A DNA stretch of 64,000 nucleotides from an uncultured Actinomycetota bacterium (GTDB lineage Bacteria; Actinomycetota; Actinomycetes; CAVWCF01). Position 1 is the stretch's first letter. Each line of letters begins with the position of its first letter. The translations under genes and the position numbers were made by a program. Location: assembly GCA_963697565.1 (NCBI GenBank), contig CAVOOM010000009.1, forward strand, positions 70,304 to 134,303, read 5' to 3'. A model generated the notes under the pieces. That model was not told where the DNA came from. It worked only from the letters and a program-made list of their open reading frames with translations, and did not search any database. This document shows, piece after piece, positions 7,898 through 62,305 of this stretch.

Positions 7898-9428
7898 CCG
7901 CCACCGTCTTCGTGCCCTGCGACAGCGCGGCCCGCAGCGTCGGCGCCGACGAGGTCGAGGCCGCTGTCGTGCCGGGAGGCGGCGGCCCGCCGAATCGGGC
8001 TCACGGTGGTGCGCACCGGGTCGAGAGGGCTGCTCTGGCTCGAGCCGCTCGTGGAGGTGCAGACCGGATTCGGCCGCATGGGCTACGGCCCGGTGGCCGC
8101 CGGCTGAGGTGCCGTCCCTGTTCGACGCTGGCTTCCTGGCCGGCAACGAGCACCCGGCCGGTCTCGGACCGGTCGACGAGATCGCGTGGCTCGCGAGCCA
8201 GCAGCGCGTCGTGTTCCAGCGGGTGGGGGTGGTGGACCCGCTGAGCCTGGCCGACTTCGAGGCGCACGGCGGCCTCGTCGGTCTGCGGGCCGCCCTTGCG
8301 GCCGACCCGCAGGCGGTCATCGCCGAGGTGGCCGCCTCCGGGCTGCGCGGCCGCGGCGGGGCGGGGTTCCCCACCGGGGTCAAGTGGCAGACCGTGCGCG
8401 ACACCGCCGCCGACCAGAGGTACGTCTGCTGCAACGCCGACGAGGGGGACAGCGGGTCGTACGCCGACCGGATGCTCATGGAGGGCGACCCGTTCGGCCT
8501 CCTGGAGGGGATGGCGATCGCGGGGCTCGCGGTCGGCGCCACCAAGGGCGTGGTCTACATCCGCTCGGAGTACCCCGATGCCGTGGCCACGATGCGCGAG
8601 GCCGTCCGGATCGCCCGCGCCTCCGGGGTGCTCGGCGCGGACCTCCTCGGCAGCGGCCGGGAGTTCGACGTCGCCGTGCGGGTCGGCGCCGGCTCGTACG
8701 TCTGCGGCGAGGAGACCGCGATGCTCGACAGCCTGGAGGGGCTGCGGGGGACGGTGCGGGCCAAGCCCCCGCTGCCGGCCCGGCACGGCCTGTTCGGGCG
8801 GCCGACGGTCGTGAACAACGTGCTCACGCTCGCCGCGGTCCCGGGGATCCTCGCGCACGGGGCGGCGGCCCACCAGGCGCTCGGGCGCGACCGCTCGCGG
8901 GGCACCCAGGTCTTCCAGCTGGCCGGCAACGTCGCGCGCGGCGGCATCGTCGAGACCGAGTTCGGGATCAGCCTGGCCGAGCTGGTCCACGGGTACGGCG
9001 GCGGCACCCGGTCGGGCCGCCCGGTGCGCGCGGTGCAGGTCGGCGGGCCGCTCGGCGCGTACCTGCCCGCCGACCGCCTCGACGTGCCGCTCGACTACGA
9101 GGCGATGGCCGCCGAGGGCGCGATGCTCGGCCACGGCGGGGTGGTGGTCTTCGACGACACCGTCGACATGGCCGCGCAGGCGCGGTTCGCGATGGAGTTC
9201 TGCGCCAAGGAGTCGTGCGGCCGCTGCACGCCCTGCCGGATCGGCTCGGTGCGGGGGGTCGAGGTCATCGACCGGATCGTCGAGGGCGTCGACCGCGACC
9301 GCAACCTGGCCCTGCTCGACGACCTCTGCGACGTGATGGCGTCCGGGTCGCTGTGCGCCATGGGCGGCCTCACCCCGAATCCGGTGCGCAGCGCCCTGCG
9401 CCACTTCGGCGAGGACTTCGAGCGATGA
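7894..9428 (+). pseudogene. fdsB: NAD-dependent formate dehydrogenase beta subunit (NuoF-like, FMN/NAD/4Fe-4S); two +1 frameshifts near 7972 and 8102 as sequenced
   Basis: ATG at 7894 overlaps the fdsG stop (ATGA). Three frame segments join as MTATVFVPCDSAARSVGADEVEAAVV / REAAARRIGLTVVRTGSRGLLWLEPLVEV / EVPSLFDAGFL... (ORF 8109..9428). Motifs are GLRGRGGAGFPTGVKW and ESCGRCTPCRIG. Confidence 0.85.
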
Positions 9429-12400: not shown

Positions 12401-12474
12401 CGCATCCCGGCTCGCTGTCCGAGGTCGTGCAGGCCGCCCTCAGGCGGCGGCCGCCGCCTCCAACTGCTTCTTGA
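9425..12474 (+). pseudogene. fdsA: formate dehydrogenase alpha subunit (Mo/W-bisPGD, Cys type) with a C-terminal FdsD-like extension; two +1 frameshifts near 10829 and 11119 as sequenced
   Basis: ATG at 9425 overlaps the fdsB stop. The 2Fe-2S and 4Fe-4S Cys clusters are present, as are CAYCGVGCSF, the active-site region TCARVCHSPTGYG, VGVNPLRGQNNVQG and EYKVTAVEV. The tail LVRMAEQIAANH...ARHLDRYWTDEM resembles FdsD. The gene is pieced from ORFs 8186..11131, 10833..11999 and 11128..12474. Confidence 0.9.
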
Positions 12475-37475: not shown

Positions 37476-38841
37476 TCAGACGGGCGTCTGCCGGTTGAGG
37501 TCGCTGCGCAGCGTCCAGACGTACGCGGGCACGCCGAGCAGGAACAGCATCATCCAGGCGTACACCGACTCCTGGCCGGCGCCGGCGATCGCCACCACGG
37601 AGTAGACGAAGCCCAGGCCGGCGATCAGGCCGTTGCGCACCAACCGGTGCAGGGGGACCGCGTGGCGGGTGGCGAACGACCACACCAGCTCGGCCCCGGC
37701 GCTGAACGCGTAGGGCACCAGGGTCGCCACCGTGGCGAGCAGGACGATCGTGTTGTAGACGTCGACGAGTTCGCCGCTGGAGAAGTTCAGCACGATGACG
37801 ATCATCGCCAGGCCGCTCGACACCAGCAGCCCGATCACGGGCACGCCCTTGGGGTTGAGGCGCTGGAACCGGCTGGGGAACAGGTGGTCGCGGGCCGCGG
37901 CCATCGGCACCTGGGACTGGATCAGGATCAGGCCGAGCATCGCGCCCGCGCAGGAGATCACGGCGACCACAGACATCGCGGTGCCCGGCCCACGGCCCGA
38001 AGACGATCTCCGCGGAGTCGGCAAGCGGGGCGCTGGAGTTGACCAGGACTGGTCGCGGGGGACGGTGCCGAAGACCGAGAACGTGCTCAGCAGGTAGAGC
38101 GCGGCGACGCCCGAGCGTGCCCAGGACCGTGGCCCGCGGGATGGTCTTCTCCGGCTCGTGCACGTCGTCGGCCGGAACGCACGCCGACTCGAGGCCGATG
38201 AACGCGAAGAGGGTCAGCGGCAGGCAGGCCGCGATGGCCCCCCAGAACGAGTAGCCGTCGGCGATGAACGGCTGCAGGTATTCCGGGTTGAGGGCGAACA
38301 GCCCGGCGACCCCCAGCAGCAGCAGGGGCACCGCCTTGAGCAGGGTGAGGATCGCCGTGACAAGGCCCCCGGCCGCGGCGCCCCGCAGGTTGATCGCGGT
38401 GAGCAGGGCCACCGCAGCCGACGGCGACCAGCGATCTCGAGGCGCGCGGTTGCCGTCCACCGCCGGCACGAGTGAGCCGACGTAGCCGACGAGCGCCACG
38501 GAGATCGCGCCCACGCTGACCCACAGCCCGATCCAGTAGTTCCAGGCGGTCTGGAAGCCGAGGAAGTCGCCGAAGCCGCTGCGCGCGAAGGCGTACGGCC
38601 CGCCCGTCTGGGGGATCCGGCGGGCGAGCGAGGCGAAGGTCAGCGCCAGGGCCAGTGAGCCCGCGGCGGTGATCGCGAACGCGACCAGGCTCACCGAGCC
38701 GTACGCGGCCAGGCTGGCTGGGAGGAGGAAGACCCCCGACCCGATCATCGTCCCGGCGACCAGGCCGGTCGCGACCCACACCCCCATCTGCTTGCGCTGG
38801 GGGGCCTCCTGCGGGGCTGCCTGGTCTGTCTGCACCGTCAT
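37476..38841 (-). pseudogene. APC-family amino acid permease; at least three frameshifts (near 38115, 38052, 37985) as sequenced
   Basis: MTVQTDQ...MGVWVATGLVAGTMIGSGVFLLPASLA... lies in the frame of ORF 37297..39252. The segments VAALYLLSTFSVFGTVP / LVNSSAPLADSAEIVFGPWAG / AMSVVAVISCAGAML... (ORF 37476..38024) lie in different frames. Confidence 0.75.
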
Positions 38842-44503: not shown

Positions 44504-45745
44504 TCAGAACACCCACGGGCACCATGGGCGCGGCTCGTGTGACATCGCCGCCGACCAGCGGGCGATCGCGGCCCGGTCGCCGTGGATCCGGCCCGCCTCG
44601 GCGTACTGCACCAGGCTGGACCCACCGAGGAAGGCCGCTCCGATGTCGGCCACGTCGCAGCGCACGTCTGGTTCGCTGGCGACGCGGACCGCCTCGCCGC
44701 CCTCCGGCCGAAGCACCAGCCGCCAGGTGCCTGCCGCGTGCCCGGTGAACCCGTCGGAGACCGCCACGACGAGGTCTGCGGGCGCCGCGTACGTCCGGGC
44801 CGCGATGGCCGCGGGCAGGTCCAGCACGCGGACCCACAGGGTGTCGGCCACGGACCGCACCACCCCGCGCACTCCCGCCATCATCGTCAGGATCGGGTCG
44901 TCGACCGGGGCCAGCCGCCACTCGACGGTGTTGGTCAGGTCGTGGCCGAGCAGCACGCGCCACACCGCGGCCCGGGATGCCGGGTCGACCGCGGCGAGCT
45001 CGCGGATCCGCACGGTCCCGGTCGGCCCGCCGGGGCCCCACTCCTGCTTGACCGCGTAGAGCGCGTACGCGCGGGCCTCGCCGTCGCGCTCGACCACCAG
45101 GGCCCGCAGCTCGCAGGCGCCGTCGCGGCGGTGCTCGGGGTCGTCGATGCGGTACGCCCAGCGGGCGTCGGTCGTCGTGGCCAGGTGGCCGGGCCGCTGC
45201 GGCCCGGTGACGGCGTCGACGGCGTCGACCGCGGCGCGGGCCTCGGCCGGGGTGGTGATCCGCGCGCGGAGCCCGGCCTCGCCCTCGACCGGCGGCAGCA
45301 GGGCTGCGTCGCCGGGCAGCTCGAGGGCTGCGCGGTGGGCGGCCACTCCGTATCCGAAGCGGCCGTAGATGGTGGGCTCGCTCGACCAGAGGACCGCCAC
45401 CGGCTCACGGTTGGCCGAAGCGATGTCGTCGAGCTGCCGCCGCATCAGCGCGCGGGCGACTCCGCGGCGGCGGTGGGTCGGCAGCACCCCGACCCAGGTG
45501 ATGCCGGCTGCGGGGACGTACCTGCCGCCAGGGACGGCCAGCCGCAGGGAGTACGCGGAGGCGATGCCGGCGGCGGCGCCGTCGAGGTAGGCGACCAGCG
45601 AGCGGTCCATCTCGAGGGTGGCCTTGTCCGCGGCCAGCCCGTCGCTCTGCCAGGTGTAGCCGAAGGCGATCTCGTCGATCCGGCGGAACTCCTCCCAGTC
45701 GCCGCCGAACGGTCTGACGTCGAGGTCCGTGCCGCTGGTGTCCAT
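44504..45745 (-). CDS. Eis-like GNAT N-acetyltransferase (GNAT + GNAT-like + SCP2-like C-terminal domain)
   Basis: ORF 44504..45781. The start is at MDTSGTDLDVRPF. The acetyl-CoA motif is VLPTHRRRGVARALM. The ~410-aa three-domain layout ends in F, as in Eis proteins. Confidence 0.75.
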   Translation of the reverse strand: MDTSGTDLDVRPFGGDWEEFRRIDEIAFGYTWQSDGLAADKATLEMDRSLVAYLDGAAAGIASAYSLRLAVPGGRYVPAAGITWVGVLPTHRRRGVARALMRRQLDDIASANREPVAVLWSSEPTIYGRFGYGVAAHRAALELPGDAALLPPVEGEAGLRARITTPAEARAAVDAVDAVTGPQRPGHLATTTDARWAYRIDDPEHRRDGACELRALVVERDGEARAYALYAVKQEWGPGGPTGTVRIRELAAVDPASRAAVWRVLLGHDLTNTVEWRLAPVDDPILTMMAGVRGVVRSVADTLWVRVLDLPAAIAARTYAAPADLVVAVSDGFTGHAAGTWRLVLRPEGGEAVRVASEPDVRCDVADIGAAFLGGSSLVQYAEAGRIHGDRAAIARWSAAMSHEPRPWCPWVF

Positions 45746-45816
45746 GCCGCCGTTATACCTGGGGCTGGCCGTGAGGGGCACGCGGTTATCGCCCAGGGGC
45801 AGGCGGGCGACGGCGG

Positions 45817-46518
45817 TCAGGAGTGCCGGAGCAGGCCGAGCACGGCGTCGCGCGCCTCGGCGCCCACCAGGGCCCCGAACGAGCCCCAGACCGGGTCGGT
45901 GGCCTCATCGAAGAGCGCGGCCAGGTGCGCCGAGTCCCGGGCGGCGAGGTCGGCCGCCTCCACCAGCGAGGCCGGCGGCTCCAGCACGCACTCGGCGAAG
46001 CGCCCGGCATACGCGCTCAGCACCTGCTCGGCCACGGGGTAGTCCTCGGGCGCCACCCGCGCCGCGACGAGCCACGGGGACGAGAGCGCACGCAGCCGCA
46101 GGGGAACGGGCAGCCCGCCGAGCGAGGGGGCGGCGGCCAGGCCGGCCCGGATCTGGTCCAGCCCGGCGTAGACCGCCTCGAACCAGTCCGGGTCCAGGGG
46201 CGCCTCGACGCGCGGGAGCAGATCGCAGCCGAACGCGAGGTCGTCATCGGCCAGGGCGAGGTCGCTGGTCAGGTGCGGGATTGGGCTGTCCGGCTCGGCG
46301 AGGGCATGCAGCATCGAGCCCTCGATGCGCTGGGAGGGCACGCTGAGCGTCACGCTCACCAGGGCTCGCACGGGGCCTCCCCGCCACACGTCCACGGCCC
46401 CGGCTGGCGTGCCGTTCGCGAGGCGCAGCACGCTCGACGACGAGACGTCGAACGACACGGGCAACAGGGCGACCAGCTGGTCGCGCAGGAGCGAGGCGTG
46501 CTCCAGAAGGGCGGTCAC
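45817..46518 (-). CDS. hypothetical protein; loose resemblance to ferredoxin-dependent bilin reductase / RCC-reductase fold (low-confidence function)
   Basis: ORF 45817..46518. Coding potential is good. The segments MLHALAEPDSPIPHLTSDLAL...AFGCDLLP, LRALSSPWLVAARV and DPVWGSFGALVG loosely parallel PcyA-family blocks. Confidence 0.5.
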   Translation of the reverse strand: MTALLEHASLLRDQLVALLPVSFDVSSSSVLRLANGTPAGAVDVWRGGPVRALVSVTLSVPSQRIEGSMLHALAEPDSPIPHLTSDLALADDDLAFGCDLLPRVEAPLDPDWFEAVYAGLDQIRAGLAAAPSLGGLPVPLRLRALSSPWLVAARVAPEDYPVAEQVLSAYAGRFAECVLEPPASLVEAADLAARDSAHLAALFDEATDPVWGSFGALVGAEARDAVLGLLRHS

Positions 46519-46578: not shown

Positions 46579-47523
46579 CTAGGCGGCGAGCGACCGCGCG
46601 TCGATCTCCGGCAGCCGGCTGGGGTCCATGCCGGGCAAGGGGGTCTTCCAGTCGTACCCCCAGCCGCCGTCCAGCAGGTCCTGCCGCCGGCGGCGGTAGG
46701 CCAGGGCCATCTGGTCGCTGCGGATATGGAGCTCCGCCGACAGGTCGTACGGCAGCAGCTCGGGCCGCTGGTGCTCGACGACGGCGGCGTCGTTGACGAA
46801 GATCGGCATGGTGCGCTTGACGGCGTTCTTGTCGGCCCAGGTGCCGGTGAGGAAGGTCCGCAGCACGACGAACTTGGTCAGCGTCTGGTTCTTGGCCACC
46901 GGGATGTTGGTGTCGTAGAGGCAGAGCACCCCGATCGGGATGTTCACCTTGAGCCGGATGATGTTCGGCATCATCCAGCAGGTGTTGGTGGTGACGCCGG
47001 GGCGGTCGTCGAGGTTGACGTTGCGGTTCTTGAACTTGCCCCACATCCCCTTGGAGCCCGGCGGGTAGAGCGTCACGGTCGTCTCGGCGGTGTACTCCGT
47101 CTCGATCACCGTGTGCTCGGGCACCTCGGGCCGGTTGGGGTTGCCGAACTGGCCCGCGTGGACGAACGGCGCGTGCGCGATGTCGACGCCGTTCTCCAGG
47201 ATCCGCTCCGCGCCGGCGTTCCAGAAGAACTCCCCGGTGGCGGCGTGGCCGCCGTACGCGGGGTCGTCCCACTCGGGCCAGTCGGGGATCGGCGGCATCG
47301 CGCTGGCCGGCAGGTCCGGGTCGCCGAGGAACACCCAGACGAAGCCGTACCGGTCGGTGGCCGGGAACTCGGCCTTGCCGGTTCGGGCCTTGTTCCAGGC
47401 GCGCACCCGTCCCGACGGGTCACGGTGCATGACGACGTCCTGGCCGAGGCACGGCATCTCGACCGGGCGCTTGCCGTCGACGACCTTGGAGAACTCCAGC
47501 GCGTACCAAAAGTTCTTGAACAT
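46579..47523 (-). CDS. Rieske-type non-heme iron oxygenase alpha-subunit-like protein lacking the Rieske [2Fe-2S] ligands
   Basis: ORF 46579..47523, 314 aa. The N-terminus MFKNFWYALEFS...LGQDVVMHRDPSGRVRAW is Rieske-domain-like, but it is followed by NKARTGKAEFPATDRYGFVWVF with no CxH or CxxH. The mononuclear iron motif ENGVDIAHAPFVH is intact. Confidence 0.7.
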   Translation of the reverse strand: MFKNFWYALEFSKVVDGKRPVEMPCLGQDVVMHRDPSGRVRAWNKARTGKAEFPATDRYGFVWVFLGDPDLPASAMPPIPDWPEWDDPAYGGHAATGEFFWNAGAERILENGVDIAHAPFVHAGQFGNPNRPEVPEHTVIETEYTAETTVTLYPPGSKGMWGKFKNRNVNLDDRPGVTTNTCWMMPNIIRLKVNIPIGVLCLYDTNIPVAKNQTLTKFVVLRTFLTGTWADKNAVKRTMPIFVNDAAVVEHQRPELLPYDLSAELHIRSDQMALAYRRRRQDLLDGGWGYDWKTPLPGMDPSRLPEIDARSLAA

Positions 47524-47594
47524 GCAACCAGCGTCACCCGTGGAACGGGATTCCGCATCTTGAGCCGGGTCGCGCAGGCGGCGGCAGGCGAGGC

Positions 47595-47840
47595 TCAGGC
47601 GGCCCGGCGGACGAGGTACGCGACCAGGCCGTCCAGGCTGCGGACCTCGCGGTAGTCGTCCTCGGGGATGTCGACGCCGGTGGACTCGGCCAGGGCCTCG
47701 ACCAGGCCGAGGAAGTCCATCGAGTCGAGGTCGATCTCGCTGCGCAGGTCCCCGCCGGCGTCGACCTCATCGAGGTCGGCCTCTGGGGCGATCCGGGCGA
47801 GCGCGGCGACGACGGCGGCCCTGGCTTCTTCGGTGTTCAT
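47595..47840 (-). CDS. stand-alone acyl carrier protein
   Basis: ORF 47595..47840, 81 aa. The phosphopantetheine site is EIDLDSMDFLGLVEAL. The ATG overlaps the E2 stop (ATGA). Confidence 0.8.
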   Translation of the reverse strand: MNTEEARAAVVAALARIAPEADLDEVDAGGDLRSEIDLDSMDFLGLVEALAESTGVDIPEDDYREVRSLDGLVAYLVRRAA

Positions 47841-49184
47841 AGCGCCTCCGGGTGGGTGAGCCGCGCCTCGAGCGCGGCCAGGTAGCGGCTGCCGAGCCGG
47901 CCGTCGGTGACCCGGTGGTCGGCGGCGAGGGTGGCGACGGTGACCGGCCGGACGAGGACGGCGCCGTCGACGGCGCAGGGCCGGTCGACCACGCGGCCGA
48001 AGCCGACGAGCGCCACCTGGGGCGGGTAGATGACGCCGTGGACGAGCTCGGCGCCCTGCTCGCCGAGGTTGGTGACGGTGAGGGTCGGGTCGCTCATCTC
48101 GGACCCGCGCAGGCGGCCGGCGCGGGCCCGGGAGACCAGGTCCTTGAGCGCGGCCATCAGGTCGACGAGCGCCAGGGTGTCGGCGTCGTGGATCGCGGGG
48201 GCGATCAGGCCGCCGCCGCGCAGCGCCACCGCGACCCCGAGGTGGACCTGCTCGGACCGCTGGAACCCGCTGTCGAGGTAGAACCCGTTGAGGTCCGGGA
48301 CCTCGCGCACCGCCAGCGCGGCGGCCTTGAGCAGGAGCGCGGCCGGAATGATCCGCTCGGAGGGCGGCCGCCCGGTGTTCCGCTCAGCCAGCCACTCCAT
48401 CGCCGGCCCGAGGTCGATCGACGTCTGCAGGTAGTAGTGCGGGATCTCGCGCTTCGAGCGGGCCATCAGCTGGCCGATCGCGGCGCGCATGGCCTCGGCG
48501 GGCGTGCGCTCGGCGGCGGGGCGGCCCGGGCCGCTGCAGGGCGCTCGGCCCCGGCGCCCGTGGGGCCGCGGCGGCCGCCTCGATCTCGGCGGCGCGGACC
48601 ACGCCTCCCGGCCGACCGGGGGCGACCACGGCGGGGTCCAGGCCGAGCTCGCGGGCCCGGCGGCGCGCGTACGGCGAGACGCGCGGCCGTTGCGCGGCGC
48701 GTGCGGCGGTGTCGACGTCATGCCGGGTCGGCTGGCCGTCCGGCCCGGAGCCGTGCACGGTCGCGAGGTCGACGCCGAGCTCGTGCGCGTGGTGGCGGAC
48801 GACGGGGGAGACCCGTGCCGGCGGCGGTGGGGCGGCCGTCGGGGCGGCCACTGTCGCAGTGGGGCGGGTGGGCGCGGGCTCGGGCTCAGGCTCCACCGGG
48901 GACTCGGATTCGGCCGCCGGCGCGGGAGCGGACCCGGTGAGAGGGGCCGCGCCCTCCAGGATCGTGGCCAGCGGGGTGCCGACGGGCACGGTCGTGCCGA
49001 CGGGCACGAGCAGCTCGCCGACCACCCCGTCCTGGAAGACCTCGACCTCGATGGCCGACTTGGAGGTGTCGACGACCGCCACGACCTGGCCGCGGTGCAC
49101 CGGATCCCCGGGCCCCACCAGCCACTCGATCAGCGTGCCCTCGTCCATGTCTGCGCCGAGCGAGGGCATCAGGTAGTCAGCCAC
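47837..49184 (-). pseudogene. 2-oxoacid dehydrogenase E2 (dihydrolipoamide acyltransferase): lipoyl domain, two PSBD-like segments, catalytic domain; +1 frameshift near 48540 as sequenced
   Basis: The N-terminal part is in ORF 48384..49247: [22 protein letters not shown]...VVDTSKSAIEVEV, VSPVVRHHAHELGVDL and VSPYARRRARELGLD. The C-terminal part is in ORF 47837..48721: REIPHYY...AADHRVTDG. Confidence 0.85.
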
Positions 49185-50175
49185 CGTCCAGCACCTCCCG
49201 CACCGCCGCCAGCACCCGGGGGACGCTGGGCAGGACGGCCTGCTCAAGGTGGCGGGCGTAGGGGATCGGGACCTCGGCCGAGCAGACCCGCTGCACGGGG
49301 GCGTCGAGGTCGTAGAAGGCCTGCTCCATCAGGATCGCGGAGATCTCGCCGGCGAGCGACCCGGTGCGCCAGCCCTCGTCCACGATCACCGCGCGGTGCG
49401 TGCGGGACACCGAGGCCACCAGGGTCGCGGTGTCGAGCGGTCGCAGGGTGCGCAGGTCGATCACCTCGGCGGAGACGCCGTCCGCGGCCAGGGACTCGGC
49501 CGCCTCCAACGTCAGCGGCAGGCTGCCGCCGTAGGTGATCAGCGTGACGTCGCTCCCGGCCCGCCGCACGGCCGCGCGGTCGAGGTCGACCGGCCCGGCG
49601 TCGGCGGGCAGCTCGCCCTCGACCCCGTACATCGACCCGTGCTCGAAGATGACGACCGGGTCCGGGTCCTGCAGGGCGGTCCAGAGCATGCCGCGGGCGT
49701 CGGCCAAGGTGGCCGGCTCGACGACGCGGAGCCCGGGCACGTGCGCGTACCAGTTCTCCAGGGAGTGCGAGTGCTGCGCCGCCAGCTGCCGGCCGGCCCC
49801 GGTGGTCATCCGGATGACCACCGGCACGTGGAACTGCCCGCCGCTCATGTGCAGCAGCGAGGCCGCGGTGTTGACGATCTGGTCGAGGGCGAGCAGCGAG
49901 AAGTTGACCGTCATGATCTCGACGATCGGCCGCATCCCGCCGAGCGCGGCGCCGATGCCGGCGCCGACGAAGCCGGACTCCGACAGCGGGGTGTCGCGGA
50001 TGCGCTCGGGGCCGAACTCCTCAAGCAGCCCCAGGCTGACGCCGAAGCCGCCGCCGTACGGGCCGACGTCCTCGCCCATCAGGAAGACGCGGTCGTCCCT
50101 GCGCATCGCGTCGCGGATGGCCTCGCGGATGGCCTCGCGGTACGTCATCCGGACGGTCTCAGTCAGGGCGGTCAT
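49177..50175 (-). CDS. 2-oxoacid dehydrogenase E1 component beta subunit
   Basis: ORF 49177..50175, intact. Motifs are [49 protein letters not shown] and MRPIVEIM. Confidence 0.9.
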
Positions 50176-51157
50176 GAGGTCACCCGCTCACTCGTGACGA
50201 ACTGCGTCAGCGTCTCGATCGGCTCGTCGCTGCCCGCGTCGGCGAACGCGACGGCCTGCGTCGATCTCCGAGCCGATCTCGGCCTCCATCGCGGCGACGG
50301 CCTCGTCGTCGAGCAGCCCTTCGGCGCGCAGCCGCTCGCCCAGCAGCAGCAGGGGATCGCGCTCCTTCCAGTGCTCGATCTCGGCCTTGTTGCGGTAGCG
50401 GTCGGGGTCGTACATCGAGTGCGCTCGGAACCGGTAGGTCTTGGCCTCCAGGAACACCGGCCCGCCGCCGTCGCGCACGAGCTCGACCGCGCGGTGCGCG
50501 GCCTCCGCGACCGCAAGCACGTCCATCCCGTCGACGGTCCACGCGGGCACCTCGTACGCCGCCGCCTTCACCGCCAGGTTGGTCTCCGACTCCGAGCGCG
50601 CCAGGGCGGTGCCCATGGCGTACAGGTTGTTCTCGCACAAGAAGAGCACCGGCAGCCGCCAGAGCGCGGCCAGGTTGAGCGACTCGTGGAACTCGCCCTC
50701 GGCCATCGCGCCCTCGCCGAAGAAGCAGACCGTGACCCGGTCGCGCCCCTGCATCGCGTCGGCCAGCGCGAGCCCGACCGCCAGCGGCAGGCCGCCGGCG
50801 ACGATGCCGTTGCCCCCGTAGAGCCGGGTGGGCTCGTGGAACAGGTGCATCGAGCCGCCGCGTCCGCGGCAGACGCCCTCAACCCGGCCGTACATCTCGG
50901 CCATCACGGCGTCCATCGGGACGCCGCGCGCGAGCGCGTGCCCGTGCTCGCGGTACGTCGCGACGATCGCGTCGTCGGGCCGCAGCGCGCCCAGGACCCC
51001 GACGGCGACGGCCTCCTCGCCGATGTAGAGGTGCAGGAAGCCCGCGGATCTTCATTGCGCTGTACAGCTCGACGCAGCGCTCCTCGAACCGGCGGATGCG
51101 CAGCATCTCGCGGTACTGCTCGACCCCCCGGACCGGGTCCAGCGGGATGCCTGTCAC
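50172..51157 (-). pseudogene. 2-oxoacid dehydrogenase E1 component alpha subunit (TPP-binding); two +1 frameshifts near 51045 and 50262 as sequenced
   Basis: [39 protein letters not shown] joins FLHLYIGEE..., continues in ORF 50188..50916 ([47 protein letters not shown]), and ends with the tail [25 protein letters not shown] in ORF 50172..50516. Confidence 0.85.
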
Positions 51158-52945
51158 GGTGCCACCTCCAGCGTTGAGAGGTCCCCCTCGGGGAGCCCGA
51201 GTTCGCGCGCCTTCAGCAGCCGGCGCATGATCTTGCCGCTCTTCGTCTTGGGCAGGTCCGCCGCGAACGCGATGTCGCGGGGCGCCACGGCGGCGCCCAG
51301 CGACTTGCGGGCGAACCCGATCAGCTCCAGCCGCAGCTCGTCGGTGGGCTCGTACCCGGGGCGCAGCGCCACGAAGGCCTTGACCACCTCGCCGGCCACC
51401 GGGTCTGGCACGCCGATCACGCCGGCCTCCGCGACGGCCGGGTGCTCCATCAGCGCGCTCTCGACCTCGAAGGGGCCGATCAGGTGGCCGGCCGTCTTGA
51501 TGATGTCGTCGCCGCGCCCGATGAACCAGAACCAGCCGTCGGCGTCGCGCTTGGCCAGGTCGCCGGTGCGGTACCACCCGCCCGCAAAGGCCTTGCGGTA
51601 GCGGGGCTCGTCGTCGAGGTAGGTGCGCATCATGCTCGGCCAGGGGGTGCGCAGGGCGAGCTCGCCCTCGACCCCGGGCTCGGTCACCTGCTCGGGCTCG
51701 CCGTCGGCGTCGAGCACGACCTCGCCGAGCGGCGTCGCGTCGCAGCACGGTCGCCTCGATGCCGGGGACCGGGCGGCCCATCGCGCCGGGGCGGATCTCG
51801 GCGCAGGCGTAGTTGGCGACCATGATCGCGCCGGTCTCGGTCTGCCACCAGGTGTCGTGCACGGGCTTGCCGAAGGCCTCCTGGCCCCAGACGACCACCT
51901 CGGGGTTGAGCGGCTCGCCCACGCTCGCGACGTGGCGCAGGGCGGACAGGTCGTGCCCGCGGGCGTGCTCGGCGCCGGCGCGCATCAGCATGCGCAGCGC
52001 GGTGGGCGCGGTGTACCAGACGGTGACCCGCTGCTCCTCGAGGATTGTGTACCAGCGGTCGGCGTCGAACTCCTCCTCGTCGACGATGCTCGTCACCCCG
52101 CACGTGAGCGGCGCGACGATCCCGTACGACGTGCCGGTGACCCAGCCCGGGTCGGCCGTGCACCAGAACACGTCGTCGCCGTCGCCGAGGTCGAGGACCG
52201 AGCGCGCGGTGGCCTGGTGCGCGACGACGGCCTGGTGGACGTGGACGACCCCCTTCGGCTTCCCGGTCGTGCCGCTGGTGAAGTGCAGCAGCGACCAGTC
52301 CTCGGGGTCGGTCGGGGGCACGGGTCCGGGGTCGGGGGCCTCGGCCAGCAACGCCTGCAGGTCGTGCACGCCGCCGTCGGTGAAGCGCTCGGCCCCGGGC
52401 CCGGCGATGAGCACGTGGGCGAGGTCCGGCAGCTGGTCGCGGATGGGCGCGACCTTGCGCCGGTAGAGCGACGCCGTGGTCACCAGCACACGGCCGGTGC
52501 CCAGCTCCAGCCGCTGCCGGACCGGCTCGGGGCCGAACGCGCTGAACAGCGGGCAGAACACGGCGCGGTGCCGCAGGGTGCCGAGCAGCGCGGCGTACAG
52601 CTCCGGCCGGCGGGTGAGCAGGCCGAACACCCGCTCGCCGGGCTGGATCCCAAGCGCGGTGAGCACGCCGTCGAACCGCCGGGCCCGGTCGGCCAGCATC
52701 GCGTACGTGACGTCCTCGTCGAGCCCGTCCGGGCCGAGGAACCGAAGGGCGACCTGGTCGCCGCGGCCATGGGCCACATGGCGTTCGGCCGCCTCGTACG
52801 CGATGTTCAACCCGGCGCCGTCGGGCAGGCCGTCGAGGGCGCCCCGGGCCTCCGCCCAGCTGAACGACCGGCGCGCCGCCTCGTAGTCGGGCATCCGCGC
52901 GGCCGCCACCTGCTCGGCCGTCTTGCCGATCACATCCCAGGTCAC
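51154..52945 (-). pseudogene. AMP-forming acyl-CoA/acyl-carrier ligase (AcsA-like adenylate-forming enzyme); +1 frameshift near 51745 as sequenced
   Basis: The N-terminal part is in ORF 50879..52945 ([35 protein letters not shown]). The C-terminal part is in ORF 51154..51717 ([39 protein letters not shown]). GTG start at 52945; the stop overlaps the E1alpha start. Confidence 0.85.
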
Positions 52946-53196
52946 CGCGTACCCCCTCGTGGTGTGCAGTTCCGTGACCAGCCGATCACTCGGCCAGGGG
53001 CCCGTCTATAGGTCTGATGTCCCTTGATCACCGGGCGCAGCCGGCAAACCGATCCCTTGGCGGGAAGGGGACTTGCGGCCCTGCCGGGGCTTTCGATAGA
53101 TGCGATCGGATGGAGGTGACCACGACAGGCCGCGTCCTCTAGGGCTGGAGGCCAGTGGGGCTTTCGGGCTGCCGCGCGGCCAGGAAGGAGCGGGTC

Positions 53197-53920
53197 ATGA
53201 CACGCGGTCATGGCCGCCGGATGACGCTCGCGGTGTTCGCCGCCCTGATGTTGGCCGCGGTGCCGGTGGGGGCAGCCCTCGGCGCTGATGCGACCGGCTG
53301 CTCCGGCTCGGCGGTCTCATCCGACGCTGATGGCAACCTGCTGGACAAGATGAGCGCTCCCGGAGCCGCGCGGCACCTTCGACGAGCCATTCGTCGTCGA
53401 TCTCGACGGGACGGTGTCGTGGCAGGGCGGCACTCCCGTTGCCCTCCAGGACGGGAGCTGGTCGGTCACGGTCGGCGGGTTCCCGGTCGCCTCTGGCGAC
53501 ATGCAGAACGGCGAGGCGGTGACCACGAAGTCCGGCGATTCCGAGGTCTCGGCGCTTCCCGCGGTTGCCAAGGCTCCTCTTGAGGGCAAGCAGAAGGTCC
53601 CCGTCGTCGTGGATATCAGCACGGCCACTGGTGACTGCTCGGCGACGATCTACGTCACCACCGATCAGCCGCCAGCCTTCACCCCGCTGTGGTGGGCCGG
53701 GATGGCGCTCATGTTGTTCGCAGTCTTCCTGCTGTGGGTCCTGCTCAGCCGCACGATCATCGAGTTCGGGCTTAGCCCGGATGAGGTTCGCGCAGAAAAC
53801 ACTTCAACACGCGGCTCTTCTGGTGGGACTTACGTCTCCGGTCAGACGGTTCTCGGTGGGTCTGGCTCGGCCCCTGGTGCCCCCTCGACCCAAACGCCCG
53901 ACAAGGGGGTCTTGCCATGA
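53197..53920 (+). pseudogene. secreted, C-terminally membrane-anchored protein of unknown function; +1 frameshift near 53368 as sequenced
   Basis: AGGAAGGAG precedes the ATG at 53197. Signal peptide MTRGHGRRMTLAVFAALMLAAVPVGAALGADA (ORF 53155..53583) joins GTFDEPFVVDLDGTVSWQGG... (ORF 53414..53920). A TM helix reads LWWAGMALMLFAVFLLWVLL. Confidence 0.55.
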
Positions 53921-55396: not shown

Positions 55397-56777
55397 TCAG
55401 CCGGCGGCCGCGGCGACCAGCTCGTCCAGCGACTCCTGGATCGCGTCGCACAGCACGTCAAGGTCCGGCACGGCGTCGTAGTCGCCGGTCACCCCGAAGG
55501 CCACCTGCCCGTTGTACGTCGCGATGCCGATGCTGATCCGCACGCCCTCGGCGATCGGGACGTAGGGGATCACCTCGCGCATGCGGCGACCCAGCAGGTA
55601 CAGCGGCTGCTGCGGCCCCGGGATGTTGGTGGTGACGGTGTTGACCAGCCGCTGGCCGGTCTTGGCCACCACCCGCCCGCTCACCACCATCACCCCTACC
55701 GGAAGGAAGTCGGCAGCAGAGAAGACGGCGTCGATCCCGGCCGCCGCCCCGCTGCGCTTGAGGTGGTCGAGCTGGCCGGAGACGGCGGCGAGGCGCTCAA
55801 GCGGGTCCGCCAGGCCGACCGGCAGCTCGGCCAGCACGGCGGTCACCCGGTTGCCCAGCTGGCCGTGCTCGTGGGGGAGTCGAAGCGACACCGGCACCAG
55901 CGACCGGAGGAGGTCGTCCTCGACGGTCTCGCCCCGGCTCGCCAGGTACTCGCGGAATCCACCCGTGATCGCGGCCAGCAGCACGTCGTTGACCGTGCTG
56001 CCCGTGGCGTTCTTCACCGCCTTCACCTCGGCCAGGTCGCCCCTCGCCCAGGCCCACCGCCGGTGCGGGCTCAGCGGGCCGTTCAGGACGCTCGTCGGGT
56101 GTGTGGCGGCCCGGCCGATCTGGCCGACTCCGTACGCGCGGGCGGCGGCAGTGCGGGTGCTCTCGATCGGCGACCGCACGCCGCCGACGAGGGCGCGGCC
56201 GATCTCGACGGGGATGCGCGCGGTCCAGGCGGCACTCGAGCCGACCAGGGCGCGGCGGGAGGGCGCCGGGGTCGGCCGCCACGTGGAGGCGGTTGACGGA
56301 GGGCGCCTCGGGATCCAGGTCCAGCATGAGCTGCAGGACGTCGTTGCCGGAGACGCCGTCGATCATCGCGTGGTGCACCTTCGACAGCACGGCCCACCGC
56401 CGGCGCGGCAGCCCCTCGATGAGCCACATCTCCCACAGCGGCCGGTCGCGGTCGAGGCGCTGCCCCATCACCCGCCCGCACAGGGTCCGGAGCTGGGCCT
56501 CGTCTCCGGGCCGGGGGATGGCGGAGTGCCGCAGGTGGTGGGTCAGCGAGAAGTGCGGGTCGTCGACCCACAGCGGACGGGCGACGCCCAGCGGCATCGG
56601 CTGGATCCGCTGGCGGTAACGCGGGAGCGCGTCGAGCCGCGACTCGATGTGGGCGCTGAACTCGCCGTAGTCCGGCGCCGGACCGTCGAAGGCCATCAGC
56701 CAGCCGACGTGCATCTGCTGGGTCTCGTTCTCGATCTGCAGGAAGGCGCAATCCAGCGCGCTGAGCCGGTCAGCCAT
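55397..56777 (-). pseudogene. wax ester synthase / diacylglycerol acyltransferase (WS/DGAT); +1 frameshift near 56285 as sequenced
   Basis: ORF 55797..56777 carries the N-terminus MADRLSALDCAFLQIE...HHAMIDGVSG. The frame of ORF 55397..56179 continues WRPTPAPSRRALVGSSAAWTARIPVEIG...NIPGPQQPLYLLG. Confidence 0.85.
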
Positions 56778-56903: not shown

Positions 56904-59049
56904 ATGCGAGAGAGAAGCCCGGCCAGGCCATCCAAGTGGAGACTGAGGCTCGGTGACCTCGGTCGGTTTGCGGTGGGCTTGGTCGCGGCCATGGCGGGCC
57001 TCATGCTGTCCGACTGGCTGCTGCCCGGCTTCGACGTGGACGGTTGGGATCAGGCCTTCATCGCGGCGCTCTCCATCGCGATCTGGAGCGCCCTCCTGCG
57101 CCCGGTCCTGGTGGCGCTGGCCACCCGGCTCGGCTGGGTGGGAGCCCTGCTGCTGGCGGTCTTCGGGCAGGCGTTCATCATCTGGCTGACGTTCTGGGAA
57201 CCCGGCGTCAGCGGCGTCTCCTTCCTGTCGGCGATCGTCGCCGCATGGATCGTCGCCATCGTCTCGACGGGCGCGGTGTGGGTGGTCACGGCGGGCACCG
57301 ACGAGGCGGTGACGGCCGGCCTGGTCCGCAAGGCCAGCCGCCGCAAGGGGACCGTCCTGCCCGACGCGGATGTCCCGGGCGTGGTCTTCGTGCAGGCCGA
57401 CGGCGTGCCGTTCCCGGTCCTCGAGTTGGGCGTGAAGGGCGGCACCCTTCCGACCCTCTCGCGCTGGGTGCGCAGCGGCTCGCACCAGATGGCCGAGTGG
57501 CGGCCCCGGCTGCCCGCGACCACGCCGGCCAGCCAGATGGGCATCCTGCACGGGACCAATGAGGGCATCCCCGCCTTCCGGTGGGTGGACCGGCCGACCG
57601 GGCGGGTGTTCGTCGCCAACAAGCCCGCCGACGCCGCCGACATCGAGGCCCTGCACTCCGACGGGCACGGCCTGCTCGCCGACGACGGCGTCTCGGTGAG
57701 CAACCTCTTCACCGGCGACGCCCCGACCGCCTACGTCACGATGAGCGCCATCAAGCGGACGCAGGAGACGAAGGAGGCCCGGGCGTCGGTCTCCCGGTTC
57801 CTGGCAAGGCCCGACGGGCTGGCCCGTGGGCTGTCGCGGACGATCAGCGAGATCGTCCGCGAGCGCTTCCAGGCCAGGCGGGCGATCCGGCAGGGACTTC
57901 CGGCCGCGGGTGCACCGCGGCTGGGGCTTCGCCGGCGAGCGGGCCGCGCTCAACGGGGTGCTGCGCGACCTGAACACCTCTTTGGTGGCGGAGTCGATGC
58001 TGGCTGGCCGCCGCTCGATCTACGTGGACTACGTCGACTACGACGCGATGGCCCACCACGCCGGGATCCTGCGGCAGGAGTCGATGGACGCGCTGGCCGG
58101 CATCGACGCGGTGCTGGCGCAGCTCGAGAAGGTCGCCGAGGTCGCGCCGCGCCCGTACCGGTTCGTCGTGCTGTCCGACCACGGGCAGTCGCAGGGGGAG
58201 GTCTTCGCCGACCGCTACGGAGAGGACCTGGCGACGCTGGTCGGGCGGCTGGCCGACGCCCACGTGACGGCCGCGATCGACGCCGACTCCGAGGGGGCCG
58301 GGCGGGTGAACGCGTTCGCCGCCTCCGCCGGCAGCAGCCAGACCATCCTGGGCCGAACCCTCGACCGGGCGGCGGACCGGTTGAGCCCCGGCGAGTACGC
58401 GAAGGACGCGCCCGCAGAGGGATCCGGGCCGCCACCGACGCGGCCGCCGGAGGCCGAGCCATCGGCCGTCGCCGACGAGTTCCTCGTGTTCGGCTCCGGC
58501 AACCTGGGGCTGGTCTACGTCGCCGGCGAAGACCACCGGCTGACGAGCGAGGAGCTGGCCGAGCGGTTCCCCGCGCTGGTGCCCGGCCTCGTCGAGCACC
58601 CGGGCGTGGGGTTCGTGGTGGTCGAGTCGGCCGCCGACGGGCCGGTCGTCCTCGGGGCCGAGGGCGAGCACCGGCTGCGAGACGGCATGGTGACGGGCAC
58701 GGACCCGTTGGGTCCGTTCGGCCCGGACGCCGCCGCCTTCGTGCTGCGGGTGACCCGGATGCCGGAGTGCCCGGACGTGCTGGTCAACAGCCTGCTCGAC
58801 TCGATGGGCGAGGTCGCCGCGTTCGAGGGGCTGGTCGGCTGCCACGGCGGGCTCGGCGGGTGGCAGGACCGGGCCATGATGGTGTGGCCCGCCGACCTCC
58901 CGGCGCCTGACGCGATGGTGGTCGGCGCCGAGGGCGTCCACGAGGTGCTCGTGGGCTGGCTGGAGCACCTCGGCCACCGGCGCGACCTGCCGCAGCGCCG
59001 ACCACGCCCGTACGACGAGCAGCTCCGGGAGCGGGCGGGCAAGGCCTAG
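56904..59049 (+). pseudogene. membrane protein: holin-like 4-TM N-terminal domain fused to an alkaline-phosphatase/type I phosphodiesterase-family domain; +1 frameshift near 57893 as sequenced
   Basis: ATG at 56904 lies in the frame of ORF 55581..58910 (LLPGFDVDGWDQAFIAALSIAIWSALLRPVL...). ORF 57826..59049 continues with DYVDYDAMAHHAG, VVLSDHGQS and CHGGLGGWQ. Confidence 0.8.
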
Positions 59050-60378: not shown

Positions 60379-60744
60379 CTAGGCGCCGGAGGTGTCGATG
60401 ATCGGTCGCACCTCGACGCATCCCGAAGTCGGCAGGATGCGGGCGAAGCCGAGCGCCTGGTCGAGGTCGGCGCAGTCGATGACGTAGAAGCCGCCGAGCG
60501 CCTCCTTGGTCTCGGCGAACGGGCCGTCGGTGACGAGGGCCTCACCGCCGGGCACCGGGCGGACCGTGGTGGCCGCCAGCGTCGGGGCCAGCGCCTCGCC
60601 CCCGTGGATCGTGCCCCCGGCCGCGGTGACGGCGGCGGCGAACTCGCCGTGCCGCTGCATCATCTCCTGCCACGCCTCGGGGCTCGGGGGCTCCGCGCCG
60701 AACGCTGCCTCGTCGCCGTAGATCAGGTACATGTAGTGCGCCAT
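60379..60744 (-). CDS. YciI-family protein
   Basis: The last 121 codons of ORF 60379..62244 read [12 protein letters not shown]...[31 protein letters not shown]. Confidence 0.85.
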
Positions 60745-60845
60745 CGGGGTCTCCTCGCATCGGAGCGGATCGTGCCGGTCATCCACTCGACGAACAGGGT
60801 GCCCCCGAATCGACAGCCCCGCCAGGGTGAGTTCTGGCGGTGGTG

Positions 60846-62244
60846 TCAGACCAGCGGGGTGAAGCGCGCCTGGAAGAAGCGCAGGTGCTTGGGCTCGAAC
60901 GTCATCTCGAGGCCGCGGACCGCGTCGCGCCTGTCCCAGACGGCCAGCACGGCCTCGGCGGCCACGTCCATGTGCGCCTGGGTGTAGACCCGACGCGGCA
61001 ACGTCAGCCGCACGAGCTCCAGCCGTGGGTCGGTTGTGCTCGCCGGTCTCGGCGTTGCGGCCGGCCGAGACGATCCCGCGCTCCATCGACCGCACTCCGG
61101 CCTCCAGGTAGATCTCGCCCGCGAGGCGCTGTGCGGGGAACTCCTCCTGCGGCACCTGCGGCAGGAAGCGCGCCGCGTCGAGGAACACCGCGTGCCCCCC
61201 GATCGGCAGCACGATCGGCACGCCGCCGTCGCGGAGGGTGTTGCCGAGGTACTCGACCTGCCCGACCCGGGCCTGCAGGTGGTCCTCGTCGACGCTCTCG
61301 CGGATGCCGATCGACATGGCCTCCATGTCGCGCCCGGCCAGGCCCCCGTACGTGTCGAGCCCCTCGTAGACCACGCACAGGTTGCGGGCCTCCTCGAAGA
61401 CCTGCGGGTCGCGCAGGGCGAGGTAGCCGCCGATGTTGACGAGCGCGTCCTTCTTGCCGCTGAACCAGGCGCCGTCGGTGAGGTCGCAGATCTCGCGCAC
61501 GATCTGCCGCACCGGGGTGTCCTGGTAGCCGGCCTCGCGCTGCCGGACGAACCAGGCGTTCTCGGCGATGCGGGTCTTGTCGAGGTACAGCTTGATCCCG
61601 TACTCGTCGCACAGCGCCCGGACCGCACGGACGTTGGCGACGCTGACCGGCTGCCCGCCGGCCATGTTCACCGTGACGGCGAGCGAGACGTACGGGATGC
61701 GGTCGGCGCCGTGCTCGTCGAAGACGGCGCGCAGCTTGCCCAGGTCGACGTTGCCCTTGAACGGGCTCTCGTCGACCGGGTCGTGCGCCTCGTCGACGAT
61801 GACGTCGACGAAGCGCCCGCCGGCCAGCTCCTGGTGCAGCCGGGTGGTCGTGAAGTACATGTTGCCGGGGATCACGTCGCCGGGCTTGATGAGCACCTGG
61901 CTGATGATGTGCTCGGCGCCGCGGCCCTGGTGGGTGGGCACGACGTACGGGTAGCCGTAGACGTCCTGCACGGTCTGCTTGAGGTGGAAGAAGTTCTCGC
62001 TGCCCGCGTACGCCTCGTCGCCGAGCATGAGCCCGGCCCACTGCTCGGCCGACATCGCGTTGGTGCCGCTGTCGGTGAGCAGGTCGATGAACACGTCGCG
62101 GCTGCGCAGCTGGAAGGTGTTCCACCCCGCCTCGGCCAGCGCCGCCTCGCGCTCGGCCCGGGTGGTCCGGCGGATGTGCTCGACGGCCTTGATCTTGTAC
62201 GGCTCGGCCCACGAGTGGCGGCGGGCAGGCGCGGACTCGTTCAT
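60846..62244 (-). pseudogene. beta-eliminating lyase (tryptophanase / tyrosine phenol-lyase family, PLP); +1 frameshift near 61030 as sequenced
   Basis: ORF 60379..62244 carries the N-terminal part (SWAEPYKIKAVE, LTDSGTNAMS, and the PLP lysine in FSGKKDALVNIGG). The tail PRLELVRLTLPRRVYTQAHMDVAAEAV...FEPKHLRFFQARFTPLV lies in ORF 60846..61628. Confidence 0.85.
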
Positions 62245-62305
62245 GTGATCCTCCTGGTGCCGATCATGGCGGATCTACCTGGCCCGGACTGCGGGCGGCG
62301 CCCGG

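Follow-up and report, generated by a model that had tools for sequence, protein, structure and literature searches.

The minus strand of a 64-kb stretch of contig CAVOOM010000009.1 from an uncultured Actinomycetota bacterium (hereafter the window; 70-76% G+C) encodes, from position 52945 down to 47595, an adenylate-forming ligase, the E1α, E1β and lipoyl-bearing E2 components of a 2-oxoacid dehydrogenase, and a stand-alone acyl carrier protein (ACP), in that order. Comparison of loci from genomes, metagenomes and plasmids indicates that this cassette is a conserved and horizontally mobile five-gene operon, and not an actinobacterial peculiarity. By sequence family, the components classify as a pyruvate dehydrogenase (PDH)-type E1, a generic E2, an AcsA and a PP-binding carrier protein, and the pairing of an acetate-type ligase with a pyruvate-type E1/E2 points to acetyl as the common chemical theme. 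We put the probability that the operon is an acetyl-S-ACP-centred module, fed by pyruvate, linked to acetate and associated with stress or hypoxia, at roughly one half. PDH-type complexes are textbook coenzyme A (CoA)-dependent machines; the novelty would lie in the coupling of a carrier protein and an acetate ligase to such a dehydrogenase in primary or stress metabolism. The cassette, a fixed unit in hundreds of species from many phyla, is apparently uncharacterised: no paper describing the five-gene unit was found in the openly searchable literature, the search not extending to subscription literature.

Gene order, coupling and conservation of the cassette

The Pfam domains of the cassette are AMP-binding and AMP-binding_C (ligase), E1_dh (E1α), Transket_pyr and Transketolase_C (E1β), Biotin_lipoyl, two copies of E3_binding and 2-oxoacid_dh (E2), and PP-binding (ACP), in agreement with the gene order and domain content given in a preliminary description of this DNA. 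The features are listed below, with the protein lengths of the ligase, E1α and E2 given after correction of single-base frame breaks (see the last section).

51154..52945, minus strand: predicted AcsA-type ligase (AMP-forming); GTG start at 52945, ribosome-binding site GAGGGGG; 596 aa corrected
50172..51157, minus strand: E1α (thiamine pyrophosphate (TPP)-dependent, PDH type); GTG start; 327 aa corrected
49177..50175, minus strand: E1β; intact open reading frame (ORF), 332 aa; ATG start
47837..49184, minus strand: E2; 448 aa corrected; C-terminus ...HPEAL
47595..47840, minus strand: stand-alone ACP; intact ORF, 81 aa; Pfam PP-binding
53068..53081, no strand assigned: DosR/OsdR-like palindromic box, GGGCCGCAAGTCCC on the minus strand; divergent intergenic region

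All four start/stop overlaps claimed earlier are found where they had been placed. The ligase stop and the E1α GTG share a GTGA at 51157-51154, and the E1α stop and the E1β ATG share an ATGA at 50175-50172. The E2 GTG at 49184, preceded by GGGAGG, overlaps the E1β stop by 8 nt (E2 might instead start at the ATG at 49169), while the E2 stop and the ACP ATG share an ATGA at 47840-47837, with GGAGG 6 nt upstream of the ACP start. The motifs DTSKSAIEVE and DHRVTDG of E2 and the DSM site of the ACP (DLDSMDF) are likewise present, and the two segments described as resembling peripheral subunit-binding domains correspond to the two E3_binding matches. A motif scan bore out the stated absence of E3 and ketosynthase (KS) genes: neither the E3 redox-disulfide motif nor the KS active-site motif occurs in any real reading frame of the 64-kb window. 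Rfam, promoter and terminator scans of the cassette region gave nothing useful.

Conservation was assessed in two directions. In a forward test, species-representative genomes were scanned with an ACP profile, yielding at least 564 confirmed loci, of which the best 80 were examined; upstream counts were limited to the 65 genome loci with enough upstream sequence. The complete ligase-E1α-E1β-E2-ACP order was found in 57-60 of these 65, and the hosts among the best 80 loci comprise Actinomycetota, Alpha-, Beta- and Gammaproteobacteria, Binatia, Chloroflexota, Planctomycetota, Acidobacteriota and Gemmatimonadota. The reverse test started from E1β in metagenomes and used loci with room downstream or upstream. 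Here E1β is followed by E2 and then ACP in 42-43 of the 44 loci with downstream room, and the ligase is present in 32 of the 33 with upstream room. The E2-ACP adjacency is very strongly conserved across orthologous loci in both tests, and the ACP is present in more than 90% of loci rather than being generally missing from them. The coupling is conserved as well: of 124 loci, 89 have an E2 stop that overlaps the ACP start by exactly 4 nt, and a further 27 overlap otherwise or are separated by ≤40 nt (116/124). A single metagenome locus (L106:3333-5280) had ~1.9 kb of sequence after a cassette-type E1β with neither E2 nor ACP detected.

Matches of E1β to plasmids are bimodal in identity, with 33 records at 63-77% and the next at 52%. 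The upper-mode records that were inspected carry the whole cassette (Rhodococcus sp. DK17 pDK1, Leisingera, Desulfotalea psychrophila LSv54, Methylocystis, Streptomyces fungicidicus and Burkholderia savannae), and RefSeq labels on such records read acsA, pdhA, beta subunit, dihydrolipoamide acetyltransferase family and acyl carrier protein. The best lower-mode record, by contrast, is a plain pdhA-pdhB pair without ligase or ACP. Several copies reside on conjugative or mobilizable plasmids (L169, L170, L171, L172 and L175); in one of these, the large plasmid of Desulfotalea psychrophila LSv54 (L171), traI/traJ adjoin the cassette. It also occurs in metagenome-assembled genomes (MAGs) of Nanopelagicales and in a sulfate reducer, and isolates that carry it include Arthrobacter, Pseudarthrobacter, Rhodococcus sp. 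DK17 (pDK1), Streptomyces fungicidicus, Leisingera, Burkholderia savannae and Photobacterium. What had been taken for an orphan cassette is hence a five-gene unit that recurs in many phyla and on plasmids.

Beyond the five genes, little is shared. Clustering of the flank ORFs revealed synteny at the genus level only, the flanks being otherwise unrelated between lineages, and clustering of all flank ORFs returned no conserved sixth gene (E3, KS, phosphopantetheinyl transferase or acetyl-ACP consumer). KS and E3 motifs were found in none of ~167 loci, and a second adenylating enzyme in only 5. Three loci from Acetobacteraceae/Rhodospirillales (L066, L071 and L085) hold a second, more distant E1α-E1β-E2 set without ACP, 3-7 kb from the cassette.

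Families and motifs of the cassette components

The ligase had been described as a mere upstream flank. It is instead a fixed cassette member, and it is classified here as an AcsA-type, acetate-specific adenylating enzyme with a Trp gate, as judged from profile scores and motifs. An intact orthologue (L003) matches the acetate--CoA ligase model NF003313 over its full length (903 bits, cut-off 729), and the window ligase is 68-82% identical to a second orthologue (L002). The motif WWQ[TS]ETG (reported as WWQTETG) is present in 98 of 98 cassette ligases, and PKTxSGKIMR, with the catalytic or regulatory lysine, in at least 81 of the 98; the window copy has both. In Acs structures, the Trp gate limits the acyl pocket to very short acids.

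The E1 subunits reach curated PDH models. An E1α orthologue scores 439 bits against TIGR03182 (PDH_E1_alph_y; cut-off 394), and the window E1β scores 413 bits against NF006667 (PDH E1 beta; cut-off 321). The closest solved structure to E1β is human PDH E1β (1e-85), with branched-chain 2-oxoacid dehydrogenase (BCKDH) structures at 1e-57 to 1e-63. With E1_dh in the alpha subunit and Transket_pyr plus Transketolase_C in the beta subunit, the E1 has the make-up of the heterotetrameric PDH type; in Leisingera, Vibrio and Photobacterium, E1α and E1β are fused into one gene. The preliminary description had raised the possibility that E1 and E2 cluster with housekeeping BCKDH. They do not, but form a group of their own with ACP-linked relatives, in which E1β identity is 63-77%, as against ≤52% to ordinary PDH. 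Comparison of the E1 and E2 with known enzymes drew on curated-model scores, the ranking of PDB matches and the bimodal distribution of identities.

E2 combines a lipoyl domain, whose lysine sits in VDTSKS, with two E3/E1-binding domains and a catalytic domain bearing DHRVTDG, and has an Ala/Pro linker. Of 120 cassette E2s, 119 retain the lipoyl lysine, and 117 of 127 retain DHRxxDG, so that E2 looks functional. It is nevertheless the most divergent component of the cassette. While mitochondrial E2p is the closest among solved structures, E2 falls under the cut-off of every NCBIfam E2 model (best TIGR01349, 254 bits against 445), and the AcoC-type model NF011457 matches the lipoyl domain only (77 bits, cut-off 307). 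C-termini were compared over L001-L168 and window positions 47837-47900: in 107 of 117 cassette E2s the chain stops (...PExL) exactly 20 residues past DHRxxDG. Alignment with human E2p, which places P223 opposite P642 of 647, and with the B. stearothermophilus core shows this end to be two residues short of theirs. In cage-forming E2s the extreme C-terminus is a hydrophobic knob that joins trimers, and the shortening may bear on whether the cassette E2 core forms a closed cage. Since E2 keeps two E3_binding domains and no E3 motif was found at the loci, it is plausible that the E3 for the complex is encoded elsewhere.

The ACP carries its phosphopantetheine-attachment serine in DLDSMDF, and D39 and S40 are invariant in its family, for which a library of 1.84 billion proteins yields 1327 representative clusters at E≤1e-10. 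Members are almost all stand-alone proteins of 80-110 aa. The ACP is only distantly like the ACPs of fatty acid synthase (FAS) type, scoring 26-32 bits on AcpP models with cut-offs of 65-84, so that it is no AcpP equivalog; its position is always after E2. Four members of the ACP family (P0262, P0226, P0251 and L051, the last at L051:9932-10801) carry a fused GNAT acetyltransferase domain of Pat type, which ties the ACP itself to acetyl transfer. One operon consists of ligase, ACP and GNAT without E1/E2 (L080:7882-10789), indicating that the ligase-ACP pair can exist apart from the dehydrogenase genes and leaving the ACP a candidate acceptor for the ligase, and at another locus a full Pat-type gene directly follows the cassette (L125:6840-9407). 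A single fusion of the ACP to OsmC was also seen (P0193).

On the Desulfotalea conjugative plasmid, the ACP gene is followed by one for a lipoate-protein ligase, which fits a functional lipoyl-E2. A role of the ACP in lipoylation of E2 was considered and appears unlikely: the ligase pocket is of acetate type, and the lipoate-protein ligase, being an ACP-independent salvage enzyme, argues against it.

Stress-type neighbourhoods and the proposed acetyl transfer

Copies of the operon tend to be located in gene islands of a stress or hypoxia type. Across phyla, in ~1.1 Mb of flanking DNA, 21 loci have universal stress protein (USP) genes, 20 have Rv0571c-like phosphoribosyltransferases/hydrolases, 19 have CBS-pair proteins and 13 have Hsp20; Pfam searches of the non-redundant flank ORFs add BON, Rv2632c-like, erythromycin-esterase-like, PPDK/PpsA, PfkB, WS/DGAT, alanine dehydrogenase and cation ATPase. 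The Streptomyces copy lies among six annotated USP genes and adjoins an alcohol dehydrogenase, with an Hsp20 gene nearby, and the Rhodococcus copy has USP, GAF sensor kinase and PfkB genes nearby. In the window, a WS/DGAT gene is located 2.5 kb upstream of the cassette. Neighbour families of this kind are typical of DosR islands. They are also typical of the OsdR and lxa islands (PMC5069765; PMC3721108), neither source listing the cassette itself. The likeness to the islands of DosR (mycobacteria), OsdR (Streptomyces) and lxa (Burkholderia cenocepacia) extends over USPs, Hsp20, CBS, PfkB, Rv0571c/Rv2030c-like, Rv2632c-like, WS/DGAT, alcohol dehydrogenase, PPDK/PpsA and GAF sensor kinase genes.

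As in DosR/OsdR regions, a DosR/OsdR-like box lies upstream of the cassette. The pattern GGGMCN4GKCCC, taken from the OsdR/DevR consensus (PMC5069765), has only two matches in the window, of which one is GGGCCGCAAGTCCC, 123-136 nt before the start of the ligase. Upstream of cassette ligases there are 7 boxes in 49 kb, compared with 28 in 1658 kb across loci, an approximately 8-fold enrichment, and the boxes upstream of the ligase occur in actinobacterial copies, the S. fungicidicus copy having two. As regulatory evidence this enrichment is suggestive only; in Actinobacteria, the cassette may be under DosR/OsdR-like control. Divergent from the ligase, an ORF at 53155-53583 (plus strand) has a signal-peptide-like N-terminus (MTLAVFAALMLAAVPVGAALGADATGCSG...) and possibly encodes a small protein that is secreted or is a lipoprotein; the promoter region holding the DosR-like box would be common to this ORF and the ligase.

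In the working model, E1 would decarboxylate pyruvate (or a very similar C2 donor) and reductively acetylate the lipoyl arm of E2, as expected at the level of the enzyme family. Through the E2 catalytic domain, the phosphopantetheine thiol of the coupled ACP would then receive the acetyl group, either in place of CoA or in addition to it, and the dihydrolipoyl arm would be re-oxidised by a host E3 encoded elsewhere. The AcsA-type ligase may tie the resulting acetyl-S-ACP pool to acetate and ATP, either by charging the ACP or, in reverse, by discharging it with a gain of ATP. The E2-to-ACP, ligase and E3 steps are drawn from the gene coupling, the GNAT fusions and the precedent discussed below. 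Gene content, order and coupling, family assignments, conservation of motifs, distribution and the bias of the neighbourhood are direct observations; the acetyl cargo, the part of the ACP as acceptor for E2, the ligase or both, the direction in which the ligase runs and the regulation are inferred. The ACP as acyl acceptor seems the most economical idea, given the conserved E2-ACP adjacency and the separation of E1/E2 from housekeeping BCKDH. If the ACP is the acetyl acceptor, the cassette would open a new branch of central or stress metabolism, in which acetyl-ACP takes on a physiological role new to it, and would provide a testable function for genes currently annotated as acsA, pdhA and 'acyl carrier protein, fatty acid biosynthesis'.

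The precedent for transfer from an E2 to an ACP is reportedly the QncN/QncL/QncM system of Peng et al. (PNAS, 2012). In this and the NapB/NapD-type systems of quinocarcin and naphthyridinomycin biosynthesis, a C2 unit moves from TPP through a lipoyl arm onto an ACP. To our knowledge, loading of an ACP by an E2 is established for no system but QncN/QncL/QncM, and it is limited to a few antibiotic pathways. QncN/QncL/QncM is the closest system in working principle: a TPP-dependent E1-like enzyme, an E2-like protein with lipoyl and acyltransferase domains and a stand-alone ACP are encoded together in both, the likeness being one of architecture. In contrast to QncN/QncL/QncM, no cassette locus has a non-ribosomal peptide synthetase (NRPS) or polyketide synthase (PKS) context, the acetate ligase is a fixed fifth member, the E1 scores as a genuine PDH E1α/β, and the distribution is wide, including plasmids and stress islands.

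The other known systems each share part of this make-up. Canonical PDH complexes with a heterotetrameric E1 (mitochondrial, alphaproteobacterial and Gram-positive) resemble the cassette in that E1α/E1β pass PDH models and E2 has lipoyl, subunit-binding and DHRxxDG domains. The cassette differs in ending in an ACP, in beginning with acsA and in never including an E3; its E1β forms a separate identity mode (63-77% against ≤52%), and its E2 lies below all curated E2 cut-offs, with a C-terminus two residues shorter than those of the cage-forming E2s aligned. With the Bacillus acoABCL genes, taken together with acsA and acuABC, the cassette has in common an AcsA-type (NF003313) ligase and E1α/E1β/E2 components predicted to yield acetyl units, and in Bacillus a connection between a GNAT and AcsA exists in AcuA. 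Unlike the Bacillus acetoin genes, it has no E3 (AcoL) but has an ACP, its E2 matches the AcoC model over the lipoyl domain only, and all five genes form one coupled operon. The acetate-[acyl-carrier-protein] ligases of malonate decarboxylase and citrate lyase (EC 6.2.1.35 / 6.2.1.22) acetylate a carrier thiol with free acetate in an ATP-dependent manner, which is the same reaction as that proposed for the cassette ligase. The ACPs of those systems bear a 2'-(5''-phosphoribosyl)-3'-dephospho-CoA group and work within lyase or decarboxylase complexes, whereas the cassette ACP belongs to the PP-binding family and has a DSM serine. On these comparisons, the cassette would be classed neither as a Qnc-type biosynthetic module nor as an AcoABCL operon, its ACP not as AcpP and its E2 not as an equivalog-level E2p.

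Several points weigh against the acetyl-S-ACP module. The whole model is built on sequence comparison, from which the E1 substrate (pyruvate, acetoin or ketose) is not readable. E2 has all canonical catalytic features and the ligase is a full acetate--CoA ligase equivalog, so that both could use CoA. Cage closure matters for access of the ACP, as CoA normally enters cage-forming E2 cores from the inside, and a closed cage would hinder a 9-kDa ACP. The five-gene unit encodes no acetyl-ACP consumer. The enrichment in stress islands is set against rough background frequencies, and the DosR-like box of the window is a single 14-nt match. Finally, the cassette may have undergone recent pseudogenisation in this particular genome, an eventuality that we consider improbable in light of the frame analysis below.

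Of the alternatives to transfer onto the ACP, the main one, an ordinary CoA-dependent catabolic operon, is possible but on balance doubtful. In such an operon, a second PDH or an acetoin-type dehydrogenase would make acetyl-CoA, AcsA would recover acetate or acetaldehyde-derived acetate, much as in Bacillus with acoABCL plus acsA/acuABC, and the ACP would be an accessory with a regulatory, scaffold or lipoylation role. The curated model matches of the ligase (acetate--CoA ligase) and of the E1 subunits (PDH E1), the RefSeq annotation as acsA and pdhA, and the canonical motifs and two E3/E1-binding domains of E2 are all in keeping with this, and the classical link between AcsA and GNATs (AcuA/Pat) could explain the GNAT neighbours without recourse to the ACP. 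However, the GNAT is fused to the ACP and not to the ligase, and the ACP, an accessory under this explanation, is found in more than 90% of loci and is translationally coupled to E2. The best E1β relative of ordinary PDH type, at 52% identity, occurs without ACP or ligase. An acetoin-type system is further disfavoured by the AcoC-type model matching only the lipoyl domain of E2, and by the lack of an E3/AcoL gene in ~167 loci, while the lipoate-protein ligase of Desulfotalea, which performs ACP-independent salvage, speaks against a lipoylation role of the ACP. The other alternative is a Qnc-like function, in which the ACP would be loaded with a glycolyl or hydroxyethyl C2 unit, derived from a ketose phosphate or 2-oxoacid, for natural-product enzymes encoded nearby or elsewhere. 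The shared trio of E1-like protein, lipoyl-E2 and stand-alone ACP, and the E1α/E1β fusion in some lineages, as in QncN, are what recommends it. We regard it as very improbable: there is no KS motif in ~167 loci and a second adenylating enzyme in only 5, the partner ligase is of acetate type, and the neighbours are stress genes and not biosynthetic ones. In addition, the flanks are not conserved, with a LysR gene between the ACP and the oxygenase-like gene in the relative L009, and the hosts and plasmids represent very diverse lifestyles, including Nanopelagicales MAGs and a sulfate reducer.

Within the acetyl-S-ACP reading, a more specific and speculative version, which we consider unlikely in its entirety, is a CoA-independent acetyl shuttle for hypoxia or dormancy. 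Pyruvate-derived acetyl would be held on a private ACP by an E2 that is possibly trimeric and not a cage, the ligase would run in reverse (acetyl-S-ACP + AMP + pyrophosphate to acetate + ATP), and acetyl-ACP would in some lineages also be a donor for Pat-type protein acetyltransferases. The lack of a consumer gene together with the hypoxia-type context would allow such a closed pyruvate-to-acetate shunt with a gain of ATP. Its role would be analogous to that of the Pta and AckA carried by the lxa locus, which has them in place of the cassette (PMC3721108). If true, the shuttle would be a route of substrate-level phosphorylation not described before, and would give ACPs a new part to play in central metabolism.

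Frame breaks and downstream genes in the window

The preliminary description had treated all five genes as whole, but in this sequence three of the five are frame-broken, and only E1β and the ACP are continuous ORFs. The frame changes show in ORF lists, in a frame plot of third-position GC and in tblastn alignments of intact orthologues. The ligase frame is broken once, by one extra base within 51725-51739; its Pfam AMP-binding and AMP-binding_C domains lie in two different frames, and tblastn with an intact orthologue splits at residues 376/378. E1α is broken twice, by single-base insertions at 51037-51046 (CGCGGGCTTC) and 50250-50262 (GACGCAGGCCGTC), and E2 once, by one extra base in the Ala/Pro linker at ~48490-48565, with the Pfam matches split over two frames. 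The gene lengths given by the earlier coordinates (1792, 986 and 1348 nt for ligase, E1α and E2, respectively) are none of them divisible by 3. Deletion of one base at each of the 4 sites yields unbroken proteins of 596, 327 and 448 aa with no further lesion, 68-82% identical to orthologues.

We consider it very probable that the four breaks are single-base insertions resulting from long-read assembly error, and most likely that the cassette genes are intact in the organism itself. The contrary explanation, that the frameshifts are real and the cassette is decaying and no longer functional in this genome, can point to 4 frame breaks in 5.35 kb affecting 3 of 5 genes, which is somewhat denser than in the rest of the window. 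It appears improbable, as third-position GC is kept at 0.95-1.0 throughout the true frames, there are no in-frame stops, and removal of one base per site repairs the proteins to full length. Both E1α sites correspond to a 1-nt gap in 3 orthologues, and E2 is in a single frame in a 93% identical relative on a short-read contig (L008). The nearest public relative (L009), a Microflora Danica long-read MAG with ~95% identical DNA, has isolated 1-nt indels at other positions, within genes that are intact in the window. Fragmented cassette genes are found in 8 of 14 Microflora Danica long-read MAG loci, compared with almost none of the other genome loci. Similar breaks are also scattered over the window, an example being the WS/DGAT gene at 55397-56777 (minus strand), of which one ORF covers Pfam positions 1-172 and a second covers 204-262 and the C-terminal domain. 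Frequent single-base assembly errors should be taken into account whenever odd ORFs in this window are interpreted.

Three genes downstream of the ACP had been linked to the cassette as part of a suspected small-molecule tailoring pathway. Such a pathway is unlikely, since there is no PKS/NRPS context in ~167 loci. The first gene (46579-47523, minus strand), located 71 nt after the ACP, encodes a 314-aa VanA_C-like oxygenase homologue whose N-terminal ~100 residues are devoid of the Cys/His ligands of a Rieske cluster; as the 314-aa length is also found in short-read relatives (L005-L007), it is a genuine Rieske-less variant and not a deletion artefact. The second (45817-46518, minus strand) encodes a 233-aa protein without Pfam match, for which the label 'bilin-reductase-like' could not be verified, and the third (44504-45781, minus strand) an Eis-like GNAT with Acetyltransf_9/17 and SCP2_2 domains. 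All three are present in the closest relatives only. In L009, moreover, a 1.4-kb insertion that is missing from the window lies between the ACP and the VanA_C-like gene (L009:1344-2730, window 47567-47584); it carries a LysR-type regulator gene divergent from the VanA_C-like gene and separates the latter from the ACP. With the LysR gene intervening and the distribution confined to the closest relatives, the three genes were rejected as cassette members. Elsewhere in the window, the frame plot alone points to more frame switches without stop/start structure, at ~7418-7900, 9424-12442, 37479-38835, 56972-59043 and 60394-62245.

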